64,000 nucleotides of DNA, taken from Candidatus Oxydemutator sp. Its GTDB lineage: Bacteria; Pseudomonadota; Gammaproteobacteria; Poriferisulfidales; Oxydemutatoraceae. Positions 1 to 47,473 of the stretch are shown here, one piece after another; positions within the stretch are counted from its first letter, which is position 1, and every line of letters begins with the position of its first letter. The DNA lies in the NCBI GenBank assembly GCA_965203445.1, contig OZ241883.1, positions 640,001 to 704,000 of the forward strand, given 5' to 3'. A program made the position numbers and the translations under genes. Under the pieces are notes generated by a model, which was not told the origin of the DNA, ran no database searches, and saw nothing but the letters and a program-made list of their open reading frames with translations.

Positions 1-3000
1 CATACTGCGCCTCCACGGGCGACGACAAACCGCGCGTGTCCGTCGCCACCAACACGAACGTCAGGGTCTCGCTGCTCGCCAACTGCACCGGCGCCACAAA
101 CGTCGTGCTGCGCGCTGCGGCGTCGTGCAACGACACCTGACTCCCGCTGATCTGACGCCAGCCATACACCAGCATCTCGTTCTCCGGATCGCTGCTGCCT
201 GCGCCGTCCAGCGTCACCACCGCGCCCTCGTCCACCATCTGATCGGCGCCCGCGTTCGCCGTCGGCGCGTCGTTCTCGCCCGGGCGCACCTCGACCACCA
301 CCGTGTCCGTGCCCACCGCGTCGCGCTCGTCCGTTACCGTCAACTCGAACACCAGCGTCGCCGTCTCCGCCAACTGCATCGGCGCCGTGAACGTCGCGGT
401 GGCCGTGGCGGTGGTCATGGCGCCTACCGTCTCTCCCGTCAGCGTCACTCGACCGCCGCCGATCTGACGCCAGCCATACGTCAGAACCTCTCTCTCCGGA
501 TCACTGCTGCCGTCGCCGTCCAGCGTTACCACATCGCCCTCGTCCACCACCTGATCATCGCCCGCGTCCGCCAACGGCGCGTCGTTCTCGCCCGCGCGCA
601 CCGTGATCACCACCGTGTTCGTCGTCTGACCGCTCAACTGACGATCCCTCGGCGACGACAACCCGCGCGTGTCCGTCGCCACCAGCACGAACGTCAGGGT
701 CTCGCTGCTCACCAACTGCACCGGCGCCACAAACGTCGTGCTGCGCGCCCCGGCGTCGTGCAACGACACCTGACTGCCGCTGATCTGACGCCAGCCATAC
801 ACCAGCATCTCGTCCTCCGGATCGCTGCCCGCGCCGGCCAGCGTCACCACGTCGCCCTCGTCCACCACCTGATCATCGCCCGCGTCCGCCGTCGGTGCGT
901 CGTTCTCGCCCGGAACCACCTCGACCACCACCGTGGCCGTGCCCGTCGCGTCGCGCGCGTCCGTTACCGTCAACTCGAACACCAGCGTCGCCGTCGCCGC
1001 CAACTGCTCCGGCGCCGTGAACGTCGCGGTTACCGACATCGCGTTCGTCAGCGTGACTCCCCTGCCGCCGACCTGACGCCAGCCATACGTCAACTCCTCT
1101 CTCTCCGGATCCCTGCTGGCTACGCCGTCCAGCGTCACCATCTCGCCCTCGTCCACCACCTGATTGGCGCCCGCGTCCGCCACCGGCGCATCGTTCGCGC
1201 CCGGACGCACCGTGATCACCACCGTGTTCGTCGTCCGATCGCTCAACTGCCGCTCCGCAGGCGACGACAGTCCGCGCGTGTCCGTCGCCACCAACACGAA
1301 CGTCAGGGTCTCGCTGCTCGCCAACTGCACCGGCGCCACAAACGTCGTGCTGCGCGCTGCGGCGTCGTGCAACGACACCTGACTGCCGCTGATCTGACGC
1401 CAGCCATACACCAGCATCTCGTCCTCCGGATCGCTGCCATCGCCGGCCAGCGTCACCACGTCGCCCTCGTCCGCCATCTGGTCGGCGCCCGCGTCCGCCG
1501 TCGGCGCGTCGTTCGGCCCCGCTCGCACCGTGATCACCACCGTGTTCGTCGTCTGACCGCTCAACTGCCGCTCCCTCGGCGACGACAGTCCCCGCGTGTC
1601 CGTCGCCACCAGCACGAACGTCAGGGTCTCGTTGCTCACCAACTGCTCCGGCGCCACAAACGTCGTGCTGCGCGCCCCGGCGTCGTGCAACGACACCTGA
1701 CTTCCGCTGATCTGACGCCAGCCATACACCAGCATCTCGTTCTCCGGATCGCTGCCATCGCCGGCCAGCGTTACCACGTCGCCCTCGTCCACCATCTGGT
1801 CGGCGCCCGCGTCCGCCGTCGGCGCGTCGTTCTCGCCCGGTCGCACCGTGATCACTACCGTGTTCGTCGTCTGACCGCTCAACTGCCGTTCCGCAGGCGA
1901 CGACAGTCCCCGCGTGTCCGTCGCCACCAGCACGAACGTCAGGGTCTCGCTGCTCGCCAACTGCACTGGCGCCACAAACGTCGTGCGACGCGCTGCGGCG
2001 TCGTGCAACGACACCTGACTTCCGCTGATCTGACGCCAGCCATACACCAGCATCTCGTTCTCCGGATCCCTGCCTACGCCGTCCAGCGTCACCACGTCGC
2101 CCTCGTCCACTACCTGGTCGGCGCCCGCATCCGCTACCGGCGCGTCGTTCTCGCCCGGCAACACCTCGACCGACACCTCGGCAGACGAACTCGCATCGCG
2201 CCTGTCCGTCACCGTCAGACGGAACACCAGCGTCGCCGTCTCCGCCAACTGCTCCGGCGCCGTGAACGTCGCCACCGACGACGTCGGATTGCCCAAACCC
2301 ACGTCGCCACCACCGATCTGTTCCCATCTGTACGACAATACGCCGCCCTCGGCGTCCGTCGCACTGCCGCGCAGCGTGACCTCCGCCCCTTCGTCCACCA
2401 CTTGATCGGAACCGGCATCCACCACCGGCGGCGTGTTCGTCTCCAACTCCACCCGAACCACCACCAGCGCGGTCGTCGCCAGACCGCGCTCGTCCGTCGC
2501 TCTCAACGCAAATCCCAGCACCGCCGCCTCCGCCAGACCCGACGGCGACGTGAACGTCGCCACCGACGACGTCGCACCGGACAACACCACCGTCGGCTGA
2601 CCGCTGGTCTGGCTCCATTGATACCTCAACATCTCGTTCTCCGGATCGAACGCCACCCCGCGCAGCACCACTTCCTCGCCTTCGCCCACTATCTGGTTCC
2701 GCCCCGCGCTCACCACCGGCGCGTCGTTCGGCCCCGGCAACACCTCGACCGACACCTCGGCCGACGAACTCGCATTGCGCCCGTCCGTCACCGTCAGACG
2801 GAACACCAGCGTCGCCGTCTCCGCCAACTGCATCGGCGCCGTGAACGTCGCGGTTACCGACTGCGCGTTCGTCAGCGTGACTCCCCTGCCGCTGACCTGA
2901 CGCCAGTCATATCCCAACTCCTCTCTCTCCGGATCGCTGCTGCCGGTGCCGTCCAGCGTTACCACCTCGCCCTCGCCCACCACCTGATCGGCGCCCGCGT

Positions 3001-4880
3001 CCGCCGTCGGCGCGTCGTTCTCGCCCGGCACCACCTCGACCACCACCGTGTCCGTGCCCACCGCGTCGCGCGCGTCCGTTACCGTCAACTCGAACACCAG
3101 CGTCGCCGTCTCCGCCAACTGCATCGGCGCCGTGAACGTCGCGGTGGTCCTGGAACCTATCGTCGCTCCCGTCAGCGTTACTCGACCGCCGCCGATCTGA
3201 CGCCAGCCATACCGCAACTCCTCTCTCTCCGGATCCCTGCTGCCGTCGCCGTCCAGCGTTACCATCTCGCCCTCGTCCACCACCTGATCATCGCCCGCGT
3301 CCGCTATCGGCGCGTCGTTCTCGCCCGCGCGCACCGTGATCACCACCGTGTTCGTCGTCTGACCGCTCAACTGCCGCTCTCTCGGCGACGACAAGCCGCG
3401 CGTGTCCGTCGCCACCAGCACGAACGTCAGGGTCTCGCTGCTCACCAACTGCACCGGCGCCAGGAACGTCGTGCTGCGCGCTGCGACGTCGTGCAACGAC
3501 ACCTGACTGCCGCTGATCTGACGCCAGCCATACACCAGCATCTCGTCCTCCGGATCGCTGCCATCGCCGGCCAGCGTCACCAACTGGCCCTCGTCCACCA
3601 CCTGGTCGGCGCCCGCGTCCGCTACCGGCGCGTCATTCTCGCCCGGGCGCACCGTGATCACCACCGTGTTCGTTGTCCGATCGCTCAACTGACGTTCCAC
3701 GGGCGACGACAGACCCCGCGTGTCCGTCGCCACCAGCACGAACGTCAGGGTCTCGCTGCTCGCCAACTGCACCGGCGCCAGGAACGTCGTGCTGCGCGCT
3801 GCGGCGTCGTGCAACGACACCTGACTGCCGCTGATCTGACGCCAGCCATACACCAGCATCTCGTCCTCCGGATCGCTGCCATCGCCGGCCAGCGTCACCA
3901 ACTGGCCCTCGTCCACCACCTGGTCGGCGCCCGCGTCCGCGACCGGCGCGCCGTTCTCGCCCGCGCGCACCGTGATCACCACCGTGTTCGTCGTCTGACC
4001 GCTCAACTGCCGCTCCCTCGGCGACGACAGTCCCCGCGTGTCCGTCGCCACCAGCACGAACGTCAGGGTCTCGCTGCTCGCCAACTGCACCGGCGCCAGG
4101 AACGTCGTGCTGCGCGCTGCGGCGTCGTGCAACGACACCTGACTGCCGCTGATCTGACGCCAGCCATACACCAGCATCTCGTTCTCCGGATCGCTGCCAT
4201 CGCCGGCCAGCGTCACCAACTGGCCCTCGTCCACCACCTGGTCGGCGCCCGCGTCCGCCGTCGGCGCGTCGTTCACGCCCGGTCGCACCGTGATCACCAC
4301 CGTGTTCGTTGTCCGATCGCTCAACTGACGTTCCACGGGCGACGACAGACCCCGCGTGTCCGTCGCCACCAGCACGAACGTCAGGGTCTCGCTGCTCGCC
4401 AACTGCACCGGCGCCAGGAACGTCGTGCTGCGCGCTGCGGCGTCGTGCAACGACACCTGACTGCCGCTGATCTGACGCCAGCCATACACCAGCATCTCGT
4501 TCTCCGGATCGCTGCCATCGCCGGCCAGCGTCACCAACTGGCCCTCGTCCACCACCTGGTCGGCGCCCGCGTCCGCCGTCGGCGCGTCGTTCTCGCCCGG
4601 TCGCACCGCGACCACTACCGTAGCCGTGCCCGTCGCGTCGCGCGCGTCCGTTACCGTCAACTCGAACACCAGCGTCGCCGTCGCCGCCAACTGCACCGGC
4701 GCCGTGAACGTCGCCACCGACGACGTCGGATTCCCCAAAACCACGTCGCCACCGCCGATCTGGCGCCAGCCGTACCTCAGCGGCTCGTTGTGCGAACTGC
4801 TGCTCGCGGCGCCGTCCAAAGTCACCACGGCGCCCTCGGACACGGTCTGATCAGGCCCGGCGTGCGCCGTCGGCGCGACC
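1..4880 (-). repeat. Intragenic tandem array of ~16 PKD-like domains (290-318 bp units)
   Basis: NDA/NT boundary markers lie near 4584, 4266, 3948, 3630, 3312, 3012, 2721, 2432, 2142, 1824, 1506, 1188, 897, 579 and 267. The main unit type has an exact 318 bp period. Confidence 0.88.
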
Positions 4881-4972
4881 GCTTCCTGGGCGGACACGGT
4901 AGCGACAACGGACAACCCTAATAGCAATAACAGACTACGCACGCACCCCCCCCCCCCCCCCCCCCCCCCCAT
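1..4972 (-). CDS. Giant secreted PKD/K319L-like repeat protein (gene D), running off the window start; >=1,657 aa
   Basis: Manual translation from ATG at 4972 gives MGGGGGGGGCVRSLLLLLGLSVVATVSAQEAVAPTAHAGPDQTVSEGAVVTLDG... The same frame reads ...FVLVATDTRGLSSPVEAQY at positions 4-2. It is probably missing from the ORF track because it has no stop inside the window. An in-frame upstream ATG at 5116 is an alternative start. About 16 Ig-like repeats follow the pattern NDAPxAxAGxDQxVxEG..VTLxG..SDPE..LxYxWRQ. Confidence 0.9.
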   Translation of the reverse strand, partial: MGGGGGGGGCVRSLLLLLGLSVVATVSAQEAVAPTAHAGPDQTVSEGAVVTLDGAASSSSHNEPLRYGWRQIGGGDVVLGNPTSSVATFTAPVQLAATATLVFELTVTDARDATGTATVVVAVRPGENDAPTADAGADQVVDEGQLVTLAGDGSDPENEMLVYGWRQISGSQVSLHDAAARSTTFLAPVQLASSETLTFVLVATDTRGLSSPVERQLSDRTTNTVVITVRPGVNDAPTADAGADQVVDEGQLVTLAGDGSDPENEMLVYGWRQISGSQVSLHDAAARSTTFLAPVQLASSETLTFVLVATDTRGLSSPRERQLSGQTTNTVVITVRAGENGAPVADAGADQVVDEGQLVTLAGDGSDPEDEMLVYGWRQISGSQVSLHDAAARSTTFLAPVQLASSETLTFVLVATDTRGLSSPVERQLSDRTTNTVVITVRPGENDAPVADAGADQVVDEGQLVTLAGDGSDPEDEMLVYGWRQISGSQVSLHDVAARSTTFLAPVQLVSSETLTFVLVATDTRGLSSPRERQLSGQTTNTVVITVRAGENDAPIADAGDDQVVDEGEMVTLDGDGSRDPEREELRYGWRQIGGGRVTLTGATIGSRTTATFTAPMQLAETATLVFELTVTDARDAVGTDTVVVEVVPGENDAPTADAGADQVVGEGEVVTLDGTGSSDPEREELGYDWRQVSGRGVTLTNAQSVTATFTAPMQLAETATLVFRLTVTDGRNASSSAEVSVEVLPGPNDAPVVSAGRNQIVGEGEEVVLRGVAFDPENEMLRYQWSQTSGQPTVVLSGATSSVATFTSPSGLAEAAVLGFALRATDERGLATTALVVVRVELETNTPPVVDAGSDQVVDEGAEVTLRGSATDAEGGVLSYRWEQIGGGDVGLGNPTSSVATFTAPEQLAETATLVFRLTVTDRRDASSSAEVSVEVLPGENDAPVADAGADQVVDEGDVVTLDGVGRDPENEMLVYGWRQISGSQVSLHDAAARRTTFVAPVQLASSETLTFVLVATDTRGLSSPAERQLSGQTTNTVVITVRPGENDAPTADAGADQMVDEGDVVTLAGDGSDPENEMLVYGWRQISGSQVSLHDAGARSTTFVAPEQLVSNETLTFVLVATDTRGLSSPRERQLSGQTTNTVVITVRAGPNDAPTADAGADQMADEGDVVTLAGDGSDPEDEMLVYGWRQISGSQVSLHDAAARSTTFVAPVQLASSETLTFVLVATDTRGLSSPAERQLSDRTTNTVVITVRPGANDAPVADAGANQVVDEGEMVTLDGVASRDPEREELTYGWRQVGGRGVTLTNAMSVTATFTAPEQLAATATLVFELTVTDARDATGTATVVVEVVPGENDAPTADAGDDQVVDEGDVVTLAGAGSDPEDEMLVYGWRQISGSQVSLHDAGARSTTFVAPVQLVSSETLTFVLVATDTRGLSSPRDRQLSGQTTNTVVITVRAGENDAPLADAGDDQVVDEGDVVTLDGDGSSDPEREVLTYGWRQIGGGRVTLTGETVGAMTTATATATFTAPMQLAETATLVFELTVTDERDAVGTDTVVVEVRPGENDAPTANAGADQMVDEGAVVTLDGAGSSDPENEMLVYGWRQISGSQVSLHDAAARSTTFVAPVQLASSETLTFVLVATDTRGLSSPVEAQY
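4946..4970 (-). repeat. G25 homopolymer (C25 on + strand) at the start of gene D; candidate slipped-strand phase-variation tract
   Basis: 25 consecutive C at 4946-4970. On the minus strand this reads ATG + 24 G (8 Gly) + TGC GTG CGT, which is in frame (ON). Confidence 0.85.
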
Positions 4973-5172
4973 CACAAACCGCCGAGCGTTCACGCTTTCG
5001 CGCACTTTCTCGTGACCGGCGGCAACGCGTCGGGAGCAGTCGCTTGCGACAAGATAGATGCAGGTGCGCCCGATACGGACGGCACGCGCCCTAAGGCCAG
5101 GGAAAGGAAATACCATGCTAGTAGGGAACTGTAGGCTATACGCCCTGATCCATGAGAATGGGCGATTGAGGA

Positions 5173-5201
5173 ATTATATCAAGCAATTAGATCAATTCCA
5201 T
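5173..5201 (-). promoter_or_regulatory. Sigma70-type extended -10 promoter for gene D
   Basis: Minus-strand TGATATAAT at 5181-5173 matches the TGnTATAAT consensus perfectly and lies in the only AT-rich intergenic stretch. The -35 at 17 bp spacing (ATGGAA) is weak. Confidence 0.65.
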
Positions 5202-5227
5202 TCCGACTCCTGACAGATGAATACAAG

Positions 5228-5281
5228 TTATTGTTCTCTCTTACTTTTATAATCATTACAGGAAACGACCAAGCCGGCCAT
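5228..5281 (-). other. 17-codon mini-ORF MAGLVVSCNDYKSKREQ, positional equivalent of the MAGF... starts of genes B and C
   Basis: TAG-GCA-ATGGCCGG follows gene C, compared with TAG-ACA-ATGGCCGG after genes A and B. Here the frame stops at TAA 5230-5228. Translation is unproven. Confidence 0.3.
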
Positions 5282-5284
5282 TGC

Positions 5285-6075
5285 CTAATGCACCGAAAAC
5301 ATCCTGCGCCGACCCTCGTTCTCTATCACGAAATACCGATCGGCGGACAACACCTCGCCGTCAAAGTCCACGTCCGCGTCCACCGCGTAATGGCCGGCCG
5401 CGGCCGCGGCGCGGTAGTCGCCCGCACCCAACGACGACAAGTTGTACACGCGTATCAATACTTCGTCCCGTTCATCAATCACGCCGTTTCGATCCACGTC
5501 GCCCGCGACCATCGCATACACGCCCGCCCCCACTGCAATCTGCCCGCCCCCGTGCGACTGCCCGACGCGGAAGTCCACGCAGTAGTCCGCCTCGCAACCG
5601 GCGCCCGTGGTCGCGGCCGCCGGTATCGCCGACATCACCGACAGATGGTTGCGGTGGTGGATCAGCACGTACAGGTCCTCCCCTTCGGACAGCTCCGCCT
5701 CAAAGCGCACGCCGCCCAATGACAGCGCGTCCGCCACCGACGACGCCGCCTCGTTTATCCCCACGATGCGACCGTCGCTCAACAGCAGACCCGCGGCGCG
5801 ACCGCCCGTCGGCGGCCGCGACGACGCGGCCGCGGTCGTGTTCTGGCCGGTGCGCAACTCCACCAGCACCCAGTCCACTATCGTCGAGGTGACACTGGCC
5901 AGGCCGACCGCCGCGCCCGCGTGCGGCACCGTCGTCGTCACCGGGTGCTCCCACGGCAACGCGCCGTACGGCTGGCGCCTCGGCAACAGACCCGCCAAGT
6001 CGCTCCTCATCCGACCGGCCCCGGCAAGCAACGCCCCCTGCAAAACCACTCGCGCGTCCACCACTACGACCCTCT
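5285..6075 (-). other. Conserved C-terminal domain of gene C (HRNH motif plus paired dockerin/EF-hand-like loops)
   Basis: RVVLQGAL...IVDWVLVELR...YVLIHHRNHLSVMS...GDVDRNGVIDERD...DVDFDGEVLSAD. Homologues end genes B (~36908-37690) and A (~47474-48265). Confidence 0.75.
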
Positions 6076-36000: not shown

Positions 36001-36904
36001 TCTCCATCTCGTCGTAATGGGGAAACGCCGCCCGATAAGCCCGATAAGCGGCCTCGTTGGCACTGCTCACGCCCGCCAGCCCGGCACCGCCCAGGTCGTA
36101 ACGGATCGCCGCCAACTGCGACGTCGTCGCCACCTCTATCAAGTTGTCGTCGTCAAAGTCGTAGTCCACGCGATCACGCACCTCGACCGTCACCACGTCC
36201 ACGCCCGTCGCACCGCGCGCGTCCGCAACCGTCAACTCGAACACCAGCGTCTCCGCCACCGCCACCCGCGGCACCGCGAACGTCGCCGTCTCCGACGTGG
36301 CGCCCGTCACCCCGACGACCGTGCCGCTGAGCTGACGCCACCGATACGTCAACTCCTCGCCTTCCGGATCATCCGCGACGCCGCGCAGCGTAACCACGTC
36401 GCCCTCGCTCACGATCACGTCGGAACCCGCGTCCACCATCGGCGCGTCGTTCGCGCCCGCGCGCACCGTGATCACCACCGTGTTCGTCGTATTGCCGACC
36501 AGCTGCCGTTCCACGGGCGACGACAAACCCCGCACGTCGGTTACCACCAGCGCGAACTCAAGCGTCTCGTCGTCCACCAACTGCGTCGGTGCCAGGAACG
36601 TCGTGCTGCGCGCCGCGGCGTCGCGCAACGCCACCGTGGCGCCGCCGGTCTGACGCCATGCGTACCTCAGCGGCTCGTTGTGCGAACTGCTGCTCGCGGC
36701 GCCGTCCAAAGTCACCACGGCACCCTCGGACACGGTCTGATCGGGCCCGGCGTGCGCCGTCGGCGCGACCGCTTCCTGGGCGGACACGGTAGCGACAACG
36801 GACAACCCTAATAGCAATAACAGACTACGCACCCCCCCCATCACTGGACCGCCGAGCGTTGGAGCAAGGGAGCGTCGGAGCGTTGAAGCGAGGAATCCGG
36901 CCAT
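5285..36904 (-). CDS. Giant modular surface protein/adhesin (gene C), 10,539 aa: signal peptide, 2 PKD-like domains, 21 x [Asp-rich cap + GLUG-type beta-helix + Calx-beta-like], terminal Calx-beta-like, HRNH/dockerin-like C-terminal domain
   Basis: Uninterrupted 31.6 kb ORF with 21 DYDxDxDxLI(E/D)VxTTSQL markers. Recurring motifs include FEGNGHVISNL/GLFG/VGGLVG (GLUG-type) and VSEG..DF..SASFSVxVxDDxxPExxE (Calx-beta-like). The true start may be Met22 (36841). Confidence 0.95.
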   Translation of the reverse strand: MAGFLASTLRRSLAPTLGGPVMGGVRSLLLLLGLSVVATVSAQEAVAPTAHAGPDQTVSEGAVVTLDGAASSSSHNEPLRYAWRQTGGATVALRDAAARSTTFLAPTQLVDDETLEFALVVTDVRGLSSPVERQLVGNTTNTVVITVRAGANDAPMVDAGSDVIVSEGDVVTLRGVADDPEGEELTYRWRQLSGTVVGVTGATSETATFAVPRVAVAETLVFELTVADARGATGVDVVTVEVRDRVDYDFDDDNLIEVATTSQLAAIRYDLGGAGLAGVSSANEAAYRAYRAAFPHYDEMETCPGTCAGYELSADLDLSSVNPAPGPGWKPLGGGVPRAVPGDAYTAVFEGNGHVIRNLRVARDGEWQIGLFGRVGAGGVIRNVGLHNAQVEMGGDSLFIGALVGDNEGEVLASYVIGGRVSGNAGVGGLIGGHYAGRLVASYADVEVHADGANVGGLIGEAGGASVVSASYSVGRVTGIYPIGGLIGNRVAGAVVESSYFDRERSRQGGCCGSRASHQLRTPTTAAGTIYEGWDKLHVDRVDQGGDGDYNDDAPWDFGTAFDYPVLVFGGATETRQARSRSQQEAQPEVSLAPTLIGSETVSEGGVALYAVRLPEALPVGVNATWDWSVGGGEVNADDIVGATTGSVTIESGQNRIAFSLTVRDDADAESFETMVVALSNARLTGAGVPARGVRLGVPAPVRTVIDPSDGVEKDYDVDGDTLIEVATTSQLAAIRHDLDGAGVTGVSDTNNVAYRKAFPFFDEASCPRACTGYELSADLDLSDVADWTPLGGGGTPDAYTAVFEGNGHVISNLRMSGGGVYGTGLFGIVGADGRIRNVGLRNAQVDLGRSSTYTGALVGRNEGKVAASYVSGGRISGASGVGGLIGGHYGRLVASYADVEVHAKASNAGGLVGEAGAASVVSASYSVGETTGGSRVGGLIGRRVATAGGGQFGVTVIAAVESSYFDKERSFRSSCCGTNEFGLDDVVAKTSSDLILPITAAGTIYAGWDKLNVDDVDQGGDGDYNDDAPWDFGSAFDYPVLVFGGATDTESARRTSQQQAQPEVSLTPTFAGSAGVSEGGTASYVVSLPESLPAGVTASWNWAVGGNQVSTDDFDGRTSGSVVIASGASSASFSVGVRDDVITELSEVMVVALSDAMLAGAPARVSLGVPASVSTVISPSDGAGRDYDLDDDTLIEVATTSQLAAIRHDLGGAGLAGVSGDANRAVYLAAFPFFEQTQTCPGASCTGYELSADLDLSSIPDWTPIGGGGSDEIPNDGAFPQDYRSCVTRQSRGTRVCWDGAPADYYYTAVFEGNGHVISNLRMNRDRRWWHMGLFGAVNANGIIRNVGLRNARVSLEDGGSSYIGALVGRNEGKVAASYVSGGRISGVFGVGGLIGGHYGSLVASYADVEVQADGRNVGGLVGEVAAASVVSASYSIGETAGGSRVGGLIGGYDIRPLLLNYADVLQSSYFDGQRSGQSSCCGRNPPSPDNTSRTSAELFSPTTAALTIYEGWDQLNVDDVDQEDDGDLNDDAPWDFGTVFDYPVLVFAGATETMAMRRTSQQQAQGVILVPTLAGSETVSEGGTASYVVSLAKVLPAGVSASWNWSVGGGEVDAADFVGTTGSVVIPSGAVSASFSVAVRADGVSELSEALVVTLTGARLAGAPAHVGLGVPLSVSTTIEASDAKDYDVDDDTLIEVATTSQLAAIRYDLGGVGIAGVSGDANRAAYLAAFPFFGDGQTCPSTCTGYELSNDLDLSDVEPAPGAGWTPLGGGVRLEDLPGDVYTAVFEGNGHVISNLRVARSGRWFHVGLFGNVGAGGRIRNVGLRNARMSLGRDSESAGALVGTNGGKVAASYVSGGRISGGTSVGGLIGINGGEVVASYADVEVHAGGANAGGLVGSDRSEGTVTASYSVGRPTGASANGLIGSRVTGSVVESSYFDKERSSQSSCCGRNSPDPDHTPRLSAELLFPTTVTDTIYAGWDQLNVDDVDQGRDGDLNDDAPWDFGTEFDYPVLVFGGATETEVARRTSQQEARPEVILTPALAGSAVVPEGGTASYVVRLPGALPAGVSASWNWSVGGGEVDADDFVGTTAGSVVIAAGAASASFSLRVRADGVPEPSEVIAIVLSDARFAGAPEGVALGVPLPVSTTIEFSDGIDYDEDDDTLIEVATTSQLAAIRYDLGGAGIAGVGKTNKSAYFAAFPVFGALQTCPSTCTGYELSSDLDLSGLNWTPLGGDTDYSRTGLRLRDALRDADYYSAVFEGNGHVISNLTMTRDGASYHMGLFGAVSAVGVIRNVGLHNARVELAAGVLGGGGDGGNQVGALVGRNEGKVAASYVIGGRVSGEEVVGGLVGGNFGVVVASYADAEVYIESGPTGGGLVGGSIVGSVVSASYSVGATTGRIDPSDNIARGMPSGLIGIKAIAAVVESSYFDTGRSGQSRCCGNSVPSPDNTPQTSNQLRAPTTAAGTIYAGWDQLNVDDVDQTGDDDLNDDAPWDFGTVFDYPVLVFGGATETMAMRRTSQQEAQPAVILAATLTGSVTVSEGEAASYVVSLPEALPTGASVRWDWVVGGGEAGIADFVGTTGVVVIGSGASSASFSVEVFDDAIPELSEVMVVTLSSAMPTGAPARARLGVPVSVRTAVEASDQMDYDRDDDTLIEVATTSQLAAIRYDLGGAGLAGVSSANEAAYRAYLAAFPFFGENETCPSTCTGYELSADLDLSAIPDWTPLGGGVRLEDFPGDFYTAVFEGNGHVISNLRVIGGGRRYHVGLFGAVGADGTVRNVGLRNARVGPLGSDSTYAGALVGRNEGTVAASYVIGGHISGASGVGGLIGDHRGRLVASYADVEVHADGSSVGGLVGEGRAASVVSASYSVGATTGSGTVGGLIGNRVAGAVVESSYFDAERSGLSGCCGSNPPSPDKTSKTSSQLRVPTTAAGTIYEGWDQLNVDRVDQGGDDDYNDDAPWDFGSAFDYPVLVFGGATETEMARRTSQREAQPQVSLAAALTGSVTVSEGEVASYVVRLPEALPTGASVRWHWEVGGGEVGDDDFVGATSGSVVIASGAVSASFSVTVLDDAVPEPSEVLVVTLSSAMPTGAPARARVGVPISVRTTIEASDQIDYDDDNDTLIDVATTSQLAAIRHDLGGAGIAGVSSADEAAYLAAFPFFGDGQTCPSTCTGYELSTDLDLSDVPNWTPIGGGITRAPWNYVPPERRYQAVFEGNGHVISNVTIRSTNNATARFDSVGFFGAVGVTGRIRNVGLNNVHTDVASRSVGAGALAGYNAGKVAACYVVGDGRQVRGGWDLGGLVGRLDGGVVVASYADVPVHQRSRGQNVGGLIGVVVNGGIVSASYALSRLTRDGDGLQGSPSGGLVGGYGSGTIQASYFDEGRSGQSDCCGNNRPTTDTAPRTSAQLRAPTAAAGTIYEGWDRLNVDGVDQGRDGDYNDDAPWDFGTTFDYPVLVFGGATDTQAARRTSQQQAQPQVILAPTLAGSATVSEGGTASYVVRLPEVLPTGVSASWSWAVGGEVDIADFVGTTAGNVVIEAGASSASFLLIVRADGEPELSEVLVVTLTDARLTGAPAHVSIGVPVSVRTTIELSDGTDYDDDDDTLIEVATTSQLAAIRYDLGGAGITGVVGKANRLAYFAAFPVFDEKQTCPSTCTGYELSADLDLSSVEPAPGAGWTPLGGGGDSLLDNYYTAVFEGNGHVISNLRVARGGRLSHTGLFGAVSAVGTVRNVGLRDARVSLGDHSTYIGALVGRNEGKVVASYVSGGRISGVWAVGGLIGGNYGRLVASYADVEVHAGGANAGGLVGEAGGASVVSASYAVGAATGNDKVGGLIGNRRVGGVVESSYFDVERSLRASCCGTNPGDLNNFAPKTSSQLRAPTTAAGTIYEGWDKLNVDRVDQGRDGDYNDDAPWDFGSVFDYPVLVFGGATDTQVARRTSQQRTQPRVSLAPTLAGSATVSEGEVASYVVRLPEVLPTGVTVSWSWTVGGDVGAADFVGTTAGSVVIGSGAVSASFSVTVLDDAVPELSEVLMVTLTGARLTGAPARGVSFGVPVSVRTTIELSDGTDYDDDNDTLIDVETTSQLAAIRYDLGGAGITGVGKTNKSAYFAAFPFFDAKQTCPSTCTGYELSADLDVSSVNPAPGAGWTPLGGGGDSLLDNYYTAVFEGNGHVVSNLRVARGGRLSHAGLFGAVGAGGVIRNVGLRNARVSVGDHSTFIGALVGRNDGEVAASYVSGGRISGVWGVGGLIGGHYGRLVASYADVEVHADGGTVGGLVGQAFVPSVVSASYSVGKPTGNTVGGLLGQRAVGAVVESSYFDVERSLRAGCCGTNPGDLNNVAPKTSSKLRVPTTAAGTIYEGWDKLNVDRVDQGRDGDLNDDAPWDFGTVFDYPVLVFGGATDTRQARRTLQQQAQGVILAPTLVGSATVPEGGTASYVVSLPEVLPAGVSASWNWAVGGVDVDAADFVGTTAGSVVIESGAVSASFSVRVFDDAVPELSEVLVVSLTGARLTGAPARVGVGVPVSVRTAIELSDGTNYDTDGDTLIEVRTTLQLAAIRHDLGGAGIAGVSDTNRANYFEAFSFFDEKQTCPSTCTGYELSADLDLSGIPDWTPIGGGIRRGSLPGNFYTAVFEGNGHVVSNLRVNRPGQRWYNVGLFGAVGAGGRIRNVGLRDARIFLGLESVYTGALVGRNEGKVAASYVIGGLIDGVHEIGGLIGGNFGRVVASYADVEVFAPRSAGGGLVGLGGAASVVSASYSVGRTAGWRTVAGLIGQHSDNTAVVESSYFDRERSGQSRCCGTYPPSPDNTSKTSNELRVPITATGTIYAGWDKLNVDDVDQGDDGDYNDDAPWDFGSVFDYPVLVFGGATETMAMRRTSQRQAQPQVSLAPTLTGSATVPEGGTASYVVSLPLVLPAGVSASWNWSVGGDEVDGDDFVGATTGSVVIESGTVSASFSVKVRDDDAPELSEVLMIALTGARLTGAPARVSVGVPAAVMTTIEFSDGIDYDDDNDSLIEVATTSQLAAIRHDLGGAGIAGVGKTNKSDYFAAFPVFGALQTCPSTCTGYELSNDLDLSGVDWTPLGGGARAVQPGNVPPVGIRYRAIFDGNGHVIRNVRIRSPSRNWHFVGLFGALGEAGWVRNVGLRDVEVEVQGGYGGSTGTAALVGYSYGRVAASYVSGGSVRGGWEVGGLVGANGGTLIASYADVSVAATERSLGGLVGRMLGSGVVSASYSVGRVLTSAGPRSVGGLVGGRSGSSVLSASYFDSERSGQSRCCGERVPGTDDAPKTSSELRTPTTATGTIYEGWDQLDVDGVDQGRDGDYNDDAPWHFGTVFDYPVLVFAGATATTVARRASQIEAQQTVTLRGSATVAEGETAEYTVGVPIEVPRPVTVSWVVAAVAGSDGAMPGDFRAGATATTALADFPTGTAIIMTGSSRTTFSVHVFDDQNAENPERFQVSVNLVADAGAEVALRSALPLVTTIEVSAGTDYDVDDDTLIEVETTSQLAAIRYDLGGVGPAGVSAANEEDYYAAFPFFDEARTCPSTCTGYELSADLDLSSIPDWTPLGGGVETLLEEDYYTAVFEGNGRVISNLRVARDGQFSHAGLFGAVSAVGVIRNVGLRNARVSLGAHSTYIGALVGRNDGQVAASYVSGGRISGASAVGGLIGDHRGRLVASYADVEVHAEESNVGGLVGEAGGASVVSASYSVGRPTGGTVGGLIGNRRVGAVVESSYFDRERSGRSRCCGTNPPTPDDASKASVELFFPTTAAGTIYEGWNQLNVDAVDQGDDGDYNDDAPWDFGGAFDYPVLVFGGSTETVQARRTSQRQAQRIILTPTLAGSETVSEGEVASYVVSFPMALPAGVATSWSWVVGGGEVGSADFVGTTAGSVVITSDVVSASFSVRVFDDAIPEFSEVLVVTLTGARLTGAPARVTSGVVSMMTTIEFSDGTDYDTDGDALIEVTTRSQLDAIRHDLGGAGLAGVSGDANRSAYLAAFPFFDERRTCVNTCAGYELSNDLDLSGMDWTPIGGGTRVRTRNNVPPAGIRYQGVFEGNGHVIRNMRIRSPSRPWHYVGLFSTLGGDGRVRNVGLRDVVVDVQGGREGSLGTGALVSFSYGQVAASYVSGGSVRGGSWVGGLMGVNLGTLVASYADVSVAGTDRSLGGLAGGMSGSGVVRASYSVSRVLPGEDSRSVGGLVGGRSRRSVLSASYFDSERSGQSRCCGERVPSTDNAPKTSSELRVPIAAAGTIYEGWDQLDVDRVDQGRDGDYNDDAPWHFGTVFDYPVLVFGGATATMVARRASQLGAQQTVTLRGSATVAEGETAEYTVGVPIEVPRPVTVSWVVAAVAGSDGAMPGDFRAGATATTALADFPAGTAIIMTGSSRTTFSVHVFDDQGAEDPERFQVDASIVADAGAELALRGALPSVTTIEASAGTDYDADADGLIDVETTSQLAMIRHDLGGVGPAGVGSANRAAYYAAFPFFDEKRTCPSTCTGYELSGDLDLSDVADWTPIGGGLGVEYPVDYYTAVFEGNGRVISNLTMTGDGQRYHVGLFGAVGADGAIRNVGLRNARVDLGHSSTYTGALVGRNEGKVAASYVIGGRVSGASRVGGLIGGHYGSLVASYADVEVHAEGSNAGGLVGEAGGASVVSASYSVGVTTGTATAGGLIGNRVVGAVVESSYFDAERSGLSRCCGTNVPTTDTAPRTSSQLRVPTTTAGTIYAGWDQLNVDGLDRGRDGDLNDDAPWDFGSVFDYPVLVFGGATDTEAARRTLQREAQPAVSLAPTLTGSETVSEGGTASYVVRLPQALPPGVRARWDWSVGGGEVDADDFVGVTASSVAIESGAVSASFSLRVRVDGEPELSEVLVVTLTGARLTGAPARVSLGVPLSVRTIIEASDETIYNGDGDTLIDVETTSQLAAIRYDLGGVGPAGVSDANRAAYYAAFPFFDEKRTCPSTCTGYELSNDLDLSDVADWTPIGGGSGVEYPVDYYTAVFEGNGRVISNLRVTGDGQRYHVGLFGAVGAVGTIRNVGLRNARVVLGHSSTYTGALVGRNEGKVAASYVSGGRVSGASRVGGLIGGHYGSLVASYADVEVHAEESDAGGLVGEAGGASVVSASYSVGVTTGTATVGGLIGNRVVGAVVESSYFDAERSGLSRCCGTNAPSSDDTSKTSSELRVPTTTAGTIYEGWDQLNVDGVARGRDGDLNDDSPWDFGSVFEYPVLVFGGSTETMQARRTLQREAQPAVSLAPTLAGSETVSEGGTASYVVRLPQALPPGVRVRWDWSVGGGEVDADDFVGVTASSVAIESGAVSASFSVAVFDDDAPELSEVLVVTLTGARLTGAPARGVDLGMPVSVRTIIEASDETIYNGDGDTLIDVETTSQLAAIRYDLGGVGPAGVSSANRAAYYAAFPFFDEKRTCPSTCTGYELSADLDLDSIADWTPIGGGSGVEYPVDYYTAVFEGNGRVISNLTMTGNGQRYHVGLFGAVGADGAIRNVGLRNARVDLGRSSTYSGALVGRNEGKVAASYVIGGRVSGAFGVGGLIGGHYGSLVASYADVEVQAEESNAGGLVGEAGGASVVSASYSVGVTTGTATAGGLIGNRVVGAVVESSYFDAERSGLSRCCGTNAPSSDTAPKTSSELRVPTTTAGTIYAGWDQLNVDGLDRIGDGDLNDDAPWDFGSVFEYPVLVFGGSTETMQARRTLQREAQPAVSLAPTLAGSETVSEGGTASYVVRLPQALPPGVRASWDWSVGGGEVDIADFIGVTASSVAIESGAVSASFSVGVFDDDEPELSEVLVVTLTGARLTGAPARVSLGVPLSVRTTIEASDETIYNGDGDTLIDVETTSQLAAIRYDLGGVGPAGVGKTNKSAYYAAFPFFDEKRTCPSTCTGYELSGDLDLSDVADWTPIGGGSGVEAPVDYYTAVFEGNGHVISNLTMATDGQRYHVGLFGAVGADGAIRNVGLRNARVDLGRSSTYTGALVGRNEGKVAASYVSGGRISGASRVGGLIGGHYGSLVASYADVEVHAEESNAGGLVGEAGGASVVSASYSVGVTTGTATAGGLIGNRVVGAVVESSYFDAERSGLSRCCGTNAPSPDDTSKTSSELRVPTTTAGTIYAGWDQLNVDGLDRIGDGNLNDDSPWDFGSVFDYPVLVFGGATDTEAARRTSQREAQPAVSLAPTLTGSETVSEGGTASYVVRLPQALPPGVRARWDWSVGGGEVDADDFIGATTGNVAIVSGAVSASFSVGVFDDDEPEFSEVLVVTLTGARLTGAPARGVDLGMPLSVRTIIEASDETIYNGDGDTLIDVETTSQLAAIRYDLGGVGLAGVSSANRAAYYAAFPFFDEKRTCPSTCTGYELSADLDLDSIADWTPIGGGSGVEYPVDYYTAVFEGNGRVISNLTMTGNGQRYHVGLFGAVGAGGAIRNVGLRNARVVLGRSSTYTGALVGRNEGKVAASYVIGGRISGASGVGGLIGGHYGRLVASYADVEVHAEGSNAGGLVGEAGGASVVSASYSVGVTTGTATVGGLIGNRVVGAVVESSYFDAERSGLSRCCGTNAPSSDDTSKTSSELRVPTTTAGTIYAGWDQLDVDGLDRGRDGNLNDDAPWDFGSVFEYPVLVFGGSTETVQARRTSQREAQPAVSLAPTLAGSETVSEGGTASYVVRLPQALPPGVRASWDWSVGGGEVDAADFVGTTAGNVVIVSGAVSASFSVGVRDDDAPEFSEVLVVTLTGARLTGAPARGVDLGMPVSVRTIIEASDETIYNGDGDTLIDVETTSQLAAIRYDLGGVGPAGVSSANKAAYYAAFPFFDEKRTCPSTCTGYELSNDLDLSDVADWTPIGGGSGVEYPVDYYTAVFEGNGRVISNLRVTGDGQRYHVGLFGAVGAVGTIRNVGLRNARVVLGHSSTYTGALVGRNEGKVAASYVSGGRVSGASRVGGLIGGHYGSLVASYADVEVHAEESDAGGLVGEAGGASVVSASYSVGVTTGTATVGGLIGNRVVGAVVESSYFDAERSGLSRCCGTNAPSSDDTSKTSSELRVPTTTAGTIYEGWDQLNVDGVARGRDGDLNDDSPWDFGSVFEYPVLVFGGSTETMQARRTLQREAQPAVSLAPTLAGSETVSEGGTASYVVRLPQALPPGVRVRWDWSVGGGEVDADDFVGVTASSVAIESGAVSASFSVTVFDDDAPELSEVLVVTLTGARLTGAPARGVDLGMPVSVRTIIEASDETIYNGDGDTLIDVETTSQLAAIRYDLGGVGPAGVSSANRAAYYAAFPFFDEKRTCPSTCTGYELSNDLDLSDVADWTPLGGGSGVEAPVDYYTAVFEGNGRVISNLTMTGNGQRYHVGLFGAVGADGAIRNVGLRNARVVLGRSSTYTGALVGRNEGKVAASYVSGGRISGASGVGGLIGGHYGSLVASYADVEVHAEESNAGGLVGEAGGASVVSASYSVGVTTGTATVGGLIGNRVVSAVVESSYFDAERSGLSRCCGTNAPSSDDTSKTSSELRVPTTAAGTIYAGWDQLDVDGLDRRGDGDLNDDSPWDFGSVFDYPVLVFGGATDTEAARRTSQREAQPAVSLAPTLTGSETVSEGGTASYVVRLPQALPPGVSVRWDWSVGGGEVDADDFVGVTASSVAIVSGAVSASFSVGVRDDDEPEFSEVLVVTLTGARLTGAPARGVDLGMPVSVRTIIEASDETIYNGDGDTLIDVETTSQLAAIRYDLGGVGLAGVGKTNKSAYYAAFPFFDEKRTCPSTCTGYELSGDLDLSDVADWTPIGGGSGVEYPVDSYTAVFEGNGRVINNLTMTGNGQRYHVGLFGAVGAAGVIRNVGLRNARVDLGRSSTYTGALVGRNEGKVAASYVIGGRISGASGVGGLIGGHYGGLVASYADVGVHAEESNAGGLVGEAGGASVVSASYSVGVTTGTATAGGLIGNRVVGAVVESSYFDAERSGLSRCCGTNAPSSDDTSKTSSELRVPTTTAGTIYAGWDQLNVDGLDRGRDGDLNDDAPWDFGSVFDYPVLVFGGSTETMQARRTSQREAQPAVSLAPTLAGSETVSEGGTASYVVRLPQALPPGVSVRWDWSVGGGEADADDFIGVTASSVVIESGAVSASFSLRVRVDGEPELSEVLAVTLTGARLTGAPARVVLGVPSTVARTTIEANELSQVTVAATSATVSESTTATFTIALSGGGDRAVVVDYEIAAASEGLTHEDLAAVHVAGRGAAGVRSVVSLPFTGSVVLNEAGVARIEVGVPSDGIGDEGRERFRLRLTGCPNCVTHLAELGTPSFADVGIFSERVVVVDARVVLQGALLAGAGRMRSDLAGLLPRRQPYGALPWEHPVTTTVPHAGAAVGLASVTSTIVDWVLVELRTGQNTTAAASSRPPTGGRAAGLLLSDGRIVGINEAASSVADALSLGGVRFEAELSEGEDLYVLIHHRNHLSVMSAIPAAATTGAGCEADYCVDFRVGQSHGGGQIAVGAGVYAMVAGDVDRNGVIDERDEVLIRVYNLSSLGAGDYRAAAAAGHYAVDADVDFDGEVLSADRYFVIENEGRRRMFSVH
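6480..17630 (-). repeat. Block of 8 highly similar modules (1392/1395 bp period)
   Basis: All eight share the GVE(Y/A)PVD(Y/S)Y loop and GQRYHVGLFG. Shadow ORFs recur at 7881, 9276, 10671 and 12066 (1395 bp spacing). Confidence 0.92.
6480..36170 (-). repeat. Tandem array of 21 modules of ~1.4 kb in gene C
   Basis: The TTSQLA marker lies near 36110, 34707, 33290, 31787, 30378, 28907, 27500, 26054, 24644, 23244, 21842, 20396, 19013, 17565, 16172, 14777, 13385, 11990, 10595, 9200 and 7805. Confidence 0.92.
36779..36841 (-). other. Predicted Sec signal peptide of gene C (MGGVRSLLLLLGLSVVATVSA|QEA) with a G8 tract at 36832-36839
   Basis: Basic residue, Leu-rich hydrophobic core and a VSA cleavage motif. 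Identical in gene B and nearly identical in gene D. Confidence 0.75.
36853..36892. repeat. Five degenerate 8-bp tandem repeats (consensus GGAGCGTT on +) at the B/C junction
   Basis: cgagcgtt ggagcaag ggagcgtc ggagcgtt gaagcgag. An identical copy lies at 47419-47458. Confidence 0.6.
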
Positions 36905-36907
36905 TGT

Positions 36908-47470: not shown

Positions 47471-47473
47471 TGT

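Follow-up and report, generated by a model that had tools for sequence, protein, structure and literature searches.

The window analysed here is the whole 64,000-nucleotide (nt) stretch at positions 640,001 to 704,000 of contig OZ241883.1 (assembly GCA_965203445.1), from the genome of Candidatus Oxydemutator sp., a closed single contig of 2,378,814 bp (G+C content, 63.6%). An RpoB fragment of this genome was 84% identical to that of a metagenome-assembled genome (MAG) labelled "uncultured candidatus Porisulfidus sp." and about 70% identical to those of Thioalkalivibrio and other gammaproteobacteria. On the minus strand, a head-to-tail array comprises six giant genes (Z, A, B, C, D, and E), and gene D begins in the window with a run of 25 G that is fused to its candidate start codon and may act as an on/off switch of the gene. 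The N terminus of D matched the profile of K319L-like PKD repeats; such domains are also N-terminal in C and E, and the C terminus of C gave a weak match to a dockerin-type domain.

Read on the minus strand, the ATG and the G run are followed by TGCG TGCG T AGT CTG, and the frame from the fused ATG reads M-G8-C-V-R-S-LLLLLGLSVVATVSAQE (Table 1). The original prediction, made from the letters of the window, had placed a G25 tract on the start codon of D, in frame with a signal peptide, such that any change in length other than a multiple of three would shift the frame of the ATG-started protein. This was borne out: positions 4946 to 4970 are C25 on the plus strand with the ATG at 4972 to 4970, the ATG frame is open for 9,005 codons past the run, and the shifted registers stop after 2 codons (+1) or 8 codons (−1). 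The shifted frames stop within 2 to 8 codons for a start at the ATG (4972) and equally for a start at the in-frame GTG at 4993, which is homologous to the start of paralogue A (ATG AAT GCT CGG CGG); a start at the GTG at 4942 leaves the run outside the open reading frame (ORF). The GGCGG element ahead of the ATG, which resembles a Shine-Dalgarno (SD) sequence, forms a duplex of −6.2 kcal/mol with the 16S rRNA 3′ end, itself the canonical CCUCC. An extra 4-nt GCGT duplication, also noted originally, is present as a doubled TGCG/GCGT (4945 to 4938) in D only; it makes the in-frame run lengths of D n = 1 mod 3, and since G25 with the 4 nt exceeds the G8 form by 21 nt, D is in frame. The TTTGTG that precedes the ATG is likewise specific to D. 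The exact run length of 25 is the value of the assembly alone. An ATG at 5116 was ruled out as the D start, being without an SD element and having its equivalent frame in E closed (6 open codons, 1-nt indel).

Across the array, the homologous sites are G8 in B, G8 in C, G25 in D, and G27 in E. The G8 runs that had been reported for B and C lie exactly at the coordinates in Table 1, with flanks identical in alignment to those of D except for the extra 4 nt of the latter. Gene E has the same start region as D, but its ATG frame reads M-G8-G-A-stop and ends after 10 codons, and the run lengths that would put this ATG in frame are 2 mod 3. Downstream of the run, 16,121 codons of E are intact, an ORF of about 48 kb, and this speaks for a gene in use.

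A 312-nt cassette separates C from D and recurs at 95% identity between D and E; it is absent from the A/B and B/C junctions. It contains an extended −10 promoter-like motif, which is identical in the E upstream region; for D, the transcription start is predicted about 7 nt downstream of 5173. The pattern TGnTATAAT had one match in the window (0.19 expected), and at least one match occurred in 17 of 100 shuffles. A scan of 4850 to 5450 for consensus promoters and terminators returned nothing, and an Rfam scan of 4800 to 5400 found no credible RNA family (best E = 0.6). The Z/A, A/B, and B/C junctions are of the form TAG-nnn-start, with 3 nt between genes (36905 to 36907 and 47471 to 47473 in the window; genome position 714894), and in both B and C an in-frame ATG lies 63 nt upstream of the G8-fused ATG. 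The stop-3 nt-start junctions and the upstream in-frame ATGs suggest translational coupling within a putative single, very long operon. B and C look co-transcribed because their starts lie 3 nt after the preceding stop codon. From this layout, D and E would each be served by a separate promoter and a separate long run, and B and C appear to be co-transcribed with A. The original proposal that each paralogue has its own switch is therefore weak for B and C, since G8 falls within the ordinary run-length distribution (the genome has 13 runs of 8 nt) and both starts sit 3 nt past a stop.

Table 1. Features of the gene D start region and the giant-gene array, and long G/C runs of the genome (window positions unless marked "genome")
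Feature	Position	Strand	Remarks
Gene Z		minus	4,326 codons
Gene A		minus	9,139 codons
Gene B		minus	3,521 codons
Gene C		minus	10,540 codons
Gene D		minus	9,014 codons
Gene E		minus	~16,100 codons; next array member after D
Gene D, 5′ part	1..4972	minus	gene end outside the window, at genome position 617928
Signal-peptide coding region	4889..4972	minus	M G8 CVR SLLLLLGLSVVATV SA, then QE; cleavage site between SA and QE judged by eye from the translation
TGCG TGCG 4-nt duplication	4938..4945	minus	unique to D in the paralogue alignment
In-frame GTG, rival start codon	4940..4942	minus	homologue of the Z start codon (ATG), 3 nt past the tract
G25 homopolymer	4946..4970	minus	C25 on the plus strand; candidate hypermutable tract
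ATG, candidate D start codon	4970..4972	minus	fused to the tract, its G being the first of the 25; ATG kept in B, C, and E
C/D intergenic region	4973..5284	minus	312 nt, AT-rich core
GGCGG, SD-like	4979..4983	minus	6 nt ahead of the ATG and conserved from B to E
In-frame GTG, alternative start	4991..4993	minus	GTG AAC GCT CGG CGG; 21 nt upstream of the ATG
TGATATAAT, extended −10 promoter-like motif	5173..5181	minus	TGnTATAAT; ~200 nt upstream of the ATG
G8 at homologous site of C	36832..36839	minus	ATG + G7
G8 at homologous site of B	47398..47405	minus	
Runs of D and E			G25 and G27; on start codon
Run of 21 nt	793242 (genome)		poly-C on coding strand, 18–30 nt upstream of secreted-protein start; 4,095 codons
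Run of 13 nt	2324554 (genome)		poly-C on coding strand, 18–30 nt upstream of secreted-protein start; ~1,395 codons
Run of 19 nt	2328499 (genome)		poly-C on coding strand, 18–30 nt upstream of secreted-protein start; 1,262 codons
Run of 24 nt	1480509 (genome)		poly-C, ~46 nt upstream of 2OG-Fe(II) oxygenase gene (PF13640)
Run of 26 nt	1824504 (genome)		in frame, 13 nt after ATG of FkbH-domain gene (TIGR01686, 294.6 bits)
Run of 28 nt	1918062 (genome)		about codon 12 of GT4-like gene; out of frame for ATG, in frame for TTG
Run of 23 nt	81736 (genome)		inside ORF, in frame
Run of 20 nt (G20)	359212 (genome)		splits ORF into 145 + 149 codons
Runs G25 and C28	1381142 and 1381208 (genome)		41 nt apart, between Schlafen-AlbA_2 gene and CRISPR array
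Run of 18 nt	1459668 (genome)		intergenic

The run of D belongs to a genome-wide class. G/C run lengths decay normally up to 10 nt, a length reached for example at genome positions 243483 and 2232333, and none is 11 or 12 nt long; 13 runs then follow (13, 18, 19, 20, 21, 23, 24, 25, 25, 26, 27, 28, and 28 nt). Runs of at least 13 nt (8 G and 5 C) exceed the chance expectation of 0.016 G and 0.035 C runs (total, 0.05; first-order Markov model of this genome), and the longest A/T run in the genome is at most 9 nt. Ten of the 13 lie within a gene or no more than about 50 nt upstream of a start codon, 8 of them at or near a 5′ end, and 3 are intergenic. Among their targets are genes for giant secreted proteins, an FkbH-domain enzyme, a GT4-like protein, and a 2OG oxygenase; one pair adjoins a CRISPR array. 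As assembled, two loci with an otherwise intact ORF are in an OFF register, namely E (G27) and the gene at 359212. The tract site of the GT4-like gene is taken as coding because homologues in two relatives (G002 and G003), which are without the run, read N-P-P there. Pfam and NCBIfam gave no match for the genes at 81736 and 359212, and orthologues of the FkbH-domain gene and of the downstream half of the split gene at 359212 were found in none of the five genomes searched.

A second paralogous pair in the genome, G8 (807221 to 807228) and G21 (793242 to 793262) within the same flanks, sits upstream of adjacent giant secreted-protein genes. Inside the giant genes are shorter in-frame runs, G10 at 2232333, 2237640, and 2350365 and G8 to G9 at 707804, 720676, 723103, and 2234224; those at 723103, 2234224, and 2350365 fall at a recurring ...W-T-P-[IL]-G-G-G... 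motif, and the G10 runs at 2232333 and 2237640 share a different repeated flank. These runs could be further, slower frameshift sites. The G25 and C28 that lie 41 nt apart form an inverted homopolymer pair outside the window (C1:1381142-1384200; locus L098:3001-6094), whose start falls within the final codons of a Schlafen AlbA_2/HATPase_c_4 gene and whose end is 31 nt short of a CRISPR array (at least 42 repeats of 36 to 38 nt, period of about 71), the repeat next to the pair being the degenerate one (92%). A relative of the same genus (G003, locus L005) has a similar G48 ... C14 ... C21 layout beside an assembly gap.

Long runs are also a property of the lineage. Of 41 genomes of the order, counting this one, 19 had G/C runs of at least 15 nt (family f1, 9/18; f2, 9/11; f3, 0/10; f4, 0/1), and in relatives the runs reach 48 and 70 nt. 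Within the family, genera g1, g2, and g4 are rich in tracts, and g3, g5, and g6 are free of them. Run-bearing genomes comprise complete single-contig ones and fragmented drafts, and this occurrence in both kinds alike argues against a one-off assembly artefact. In a class-wide sample, 31 of 201 genomes had such runs, many with a single run and some at contig ends, and heavy loads beyond this order were confined to four of the 199 other genomes (G050, G102, G143, and G164). When five tracts of G010 were taken without selection, three lay on the 5′ end of a long ORF or a short way upstream of it. G004 has the heaviest load and ORFs of 13,000 to 15,000 codons; one of eight of its start regions, which were guessed and may miss true starts, is an in-frame C21 fused to an ATG. 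Direct fusion of an ATG to a run was seen in relatives with C70 (L010:1456-1525, G010) and with C26, G28, and C21 (L002, L003, and L131; G010, G022, and G004); the C70, C26, and G28 loci were chosen by similarity to the query and their flanks are biased, and L131 (C21, in frame with a long ORF) was not so chosen. In relatives, "GAT" or "AT" seemed enriched ahead of poly-G, a signal that was rejected as ascertainment bias since the loci had come from a BLAST search whose query itself begins with such a flank (GAT-G25).

Loss of mismatch repair as the cause of the tracts was ruled out, as MutS_V was found in this genome and in 29 of 29 f1 and f2 relatives, with and without tracts, and MutL_C in this genome. 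MutS_V had no match in 11 of 11 small-genome (0.9 to 1.2 Mb) f3 and f4 relatives (within G020 to G039), all without G/C runs of at least 15 nt; within the order, long runs accompany the presence of MutS, not its absence.

We give about even probability to the reading that G25 is a slipped-strand translational ON/OFF contingency switch of D, with D "on" and E "off" in the assembled genome. D would be transcribed from its own promoter in the 312-nt intergenic region and translated, from the run-fused ATG or the in-frame GTG 21 nt upstream, into a secreted PKD-repeat surface protein of 9,014 residues, with the run supplying 8 glycines to the n-region of the signal peptide. A replication slip of 1 or 2 G would bring in stops 2 to 8 codons on and turn the 27-kb gene off, and a further slip would turn it back on. 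With a start at the ATG or at GTG 4993, D would be ON only at run lengths of 1 mod 3, so that n = 25 is ON; E, with the same cassette and start region but G27, would be OFF for its ATG, and its ORF, intact despite the out-of-frame ATG, is as expected of a reversible "off" state. Because each gene has its own promoter cassette, D and E might switch independently. This reading builds on the observed anatomy, frames, statistical excess, location bias, and lineage spread of the runs; we infer that run length changes, that translation begins at the ATG, and that selection favours switching.

Of the phase switch that was originally proposed, the part that gained support is the fused ATG with its GGCGG, the tract repertoire of the genome and lineage, and the G27 of E, "off" over an intact ORF; the part that lost ground is the choice of start, since the GTG at 4942 to 4940 aligns with the ATG of Z. 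That the D run works like a homopolymer contingency locus is partly supported, and its full membership in that class is putative. An RNA G-quadruplex over the start codon had also been suggested; G25 could form a multi-tetrad quadruplex with 1-nt loops, and in ViennaRNA the minimum free energy was −105 kcal/mol with G-quadruplex energies and −52 kcal/mol without. The quadruplex at the D start is a prediction of the folding program, and these energies are its support.

Several observations weigh against a switch at the ATG, the first being that no variation in run length came to light in the contigs, metagenome, and relatives searched; indirect evidence for it is confined to the paralogous sites (G8, G8, G25, and G27, and G8 and G21 at the second pair). 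Three public sequencing runs were searched as assembled contigs, two from one sample holding 0.71 to 0.78 of the sampled words and one metagenome holding 0.08, and no contig of the three bridged 4933 to 4980. Contigs of the two one-sample runs end at 4932 and resume at 4981, flanking the tract, and two variants of 4981 to 5296 were present, the D upstream region and a copy with 20 differences that fits the E upstream region. The exact 25-nt pattern (G7 plus the conserved signal-peptide start) had no match in metagenome contigs. A search of 40 relatives with the 5′-region DNA of D turned up no orthologue: apart from the homopolymer itself, only two short stretches matched, both PKD-repeat sequence of G010 that aligns with the query beyond its signal-peptide segment. 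Of 19 protein matches to the first 200 residues of D, the 4 inspected were internal PKD fragments without an N terminus. The assembled length may be 1 to 2 nt off, which makes the ON/OFF calls for D and E provisional. Transcriptional slippage is established at long homopolymers, and as a G:C run of 25 is longer than the RNA-DNA hybrid, such slippage should make the switch leaky. MutS and MutL are present, unlike in Campylobacter, and slippage may be partly repaired. Last, the GTG at 4942 to 4940, which aligns with the Z ATG and follows a poly-G whose predicted duplex with the anti-SD sequence is −14.0 kcal/mol, could initiate at any run length.

This GTG is the basis of an alternative that we consider unlikely, albeit the strongest rival to the switch, in which the run lies in the 5′ leader as an expanded SD element and translation starts at 4942 (M-R-S-LLLLLGLS). 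Length would then tune initiation through SD strength or position, a G-quadruplex, or interference from short ATG-frame translation, and D and E would both be expressed, in keeping with the intact 16,121-codon ORF of E behind an out-of-frame ATG. Because the Z start, GAGGGGC-ATG-CGT-AGC-CTG-TTA, aligns base for base with the G(n)-TG-CGT-AGT-CTG-TTA of B to E, GTG 4942 would be the homologue of the Z ATG and the run that of the SD-like GAGGGG of Z; the poly-G/anti-SD duplex is stronger than that of the element before the ATG (−6.2 kcal/mol), and M-R-S-L5-G-L-S-V-V-A-T-V-S-A alone makes a canonical short signal peptide. However, the run-fused ATG and the GGCGG 6 to 7 nt upstream of it are kept in all four copies (B, C, D, and E), and the SD-to-GTG spacing in B and C would be only 2 to 3 nt. 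Elsewhere in the genome, other tracts are unambiguously coding (the GT4-like gene with its N-P-P homologues and two mid-ORF tracts), and 6 further tracts are poly-C on the coding strand and unable to serve as an SD element. Ribosomes that started at the ATG in an "off" frame would, moreover, cross the GTG and probably hinder initiation there.

Selection might also be absent, in that a mutational bias of the lineage expands G:C runs past about 10 to 12 nt and these are tolerated where they do little harm (N-terminal glycine or proline stretches, leaders, and intergenic DNA), transcriptional slippage keeping the genes partly expressed. The bimodal lengths, with the gap at 11 to 12 nt and most tracts at 18 to 28 nt, the tracts of up to 48 and 70 nt in relatives, the three intergenic tracts with no obvious target, and the sporadic heavy loads in unrelated families of the class fit such a bias, which we nonetheless regard as quite improbable, given that 10 of the 13 tracts fall inside a gene or no further than about 50 nt ahead of a start and 8 at or near a 5′ end (positions that make up a small fraction of the genome by an estimate made without a gene caller), that the targets are typical of contingency loci (surface proteins, a glycosyltransferase, and an FkbH-domain enzyme), and that neutral expansion leaves the fusion to the ATG unexplained. 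Long homopolymers are error-prone on all sequencing platforms, two-colour chemistry can produce poly-G artefacts at contig ends, and some runs of at least 15 nt in other drafts are indeed at contig ends (for example, in G016, G138, and G165); together with the unbridged 4933 to 4980, this raises the question of whether the run or its length is an artefact of assembly or base calling. There is very little chance of this, as the 13 tracts are internal to a closed single-contig genome at non-random positions, two of them exactly where paralogues have G8, and the same class occurs in at least 10 independent assemblies of the order and in 0 of 11 f3 and f4 genomes. The contig breaks at 4932 and 4981 fit a real low-complexity block, and a count error of 1 to 2 nt, quite possible, would alter the ON/OFF call only.

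In a few mucosal pathogens, poly-G slippage is a textbook mechanism of phase variation. In Neisseria, pilC has a poly-G of about 10 to 13 nt in the signal-peptide coding region of a gene of about 3 kb, not fused to the start codon. The D run resembles it as a poly-G in the leader-peptide region of an adhesin-type gene that would read as glycines when in frame, and differs as a 25-nt run that begins at the G of the ATG and would gate a 27-kb gene. Fimbrial genes of Bordetella pertussis have poly-C tracts in their promoters. The poly-C runs at 793242, 1480509, 2324554, and 2328499 are similarly placed tens of nucleotides upstream of starts, but at 21 to 24 nt such upstream tracts are too long for a −35/−10 spacer, and the D tract is on the start codon and not in a promoter spacer.

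Homopolymeric tracts of B. pertussis are covered in the part of PMC1891110 used here. According to the part of PMC8355987 used here, Campylobacter jejuni, like this genome, has multiple G/C homopolymers in or just upstream of genes for surface structures and glycan modification, where slippage would give ON/OFF frames, and its poly-G tracts, mostly of 9 to 10 nt, slip at 1e-4 to 1.6e-3 per division. In the same account, the tracts are mainly G9 to G10 with a deletion bias from G11, the organism has no functional mismatch repair, and the variation was measured, whereas the tracts of this genome are 13 to 28 nt long (to 70 nt in a relative), with none of 11 to 12 nt, in the presence of MutS and MutL, and are known from assembled sequence. 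Frameshift frequency grows with tract length, and 5′ tracts lead to reversible inactivation (PMC2831843, in part). As described there, inlA of Listeria monocytogenes resembles D in that its homopolymer stands at the very start of a gene for a surface protein and allows reversible truncation a few codons on, as would that of D; inlA has a short poly(A), and D has a poly-G, three times longer and part of a genome-wide set. The D run is most likely a slippage-driven on/off switch of a known kind and of unusual length. It departs from the known systems in its length, in the bimodal distribution of run lengths, in occurring alongside intact mismatch-repair genes, and in how large the genes are that it would gate. 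At the level of titles and abstract openings, we found no paper that links Porisulfidus, or sponge or sulfur-oxidising symbionts, with homopolymer phase variation.

A broader proposal is that these bacteria, proficient in mismatch repair, maintain a regime of hyper-long G:C tracts, in which runs past about 12 nt move to an equilibrium of about 18 to 28 nt (to 70 nt) and slippage in replication and transcription, together with G-quadruplexes, yields very fast or graded switches that gate 27- to 48-kb adhesin genes, glycan genes, and possibly a CRISPR array, giving a combinatorial surface in a host-associated population. We put this forward as an improbable, speculative extension.

About 26 stop-to-stop ORFs of more than 1,500 codons (antisense shadow ORFs omitted) were counted in the genome, the largest of 17,496 and 16,130 codons; they sum to roughly 170,000 codons, about one-fifth of the 2.38 Mb. 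In another public assembly, two PKD-repeat fragments (P0002 and P0004) end in arginine- and glycine-rich tails that look out of frame, which points to frameshifts, erroneous or real, in a related giant gene.

If the switch is real, the logic known from mucosal pathogens would extend to a marine gammaproteobacterium that is uncultured and has a "Candidatus Porisulfidus" MAG as its nearest named relative. It would act on tracts 2 to 3 times longer than the range thought stable and on two single genes, of 27 and 48 kb, which jointly account for about 3% of the genome. It would explain how a 2.4-Mb genome can spend about one-fifth of its coding capacity on giant surface proteins, each cell making a subset of them, and run length would become a marker of population heterogeneity in such bacteria that can be counted in reads. 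The reading would also bear on the question of what caps the length of homopolymers in bacteria.

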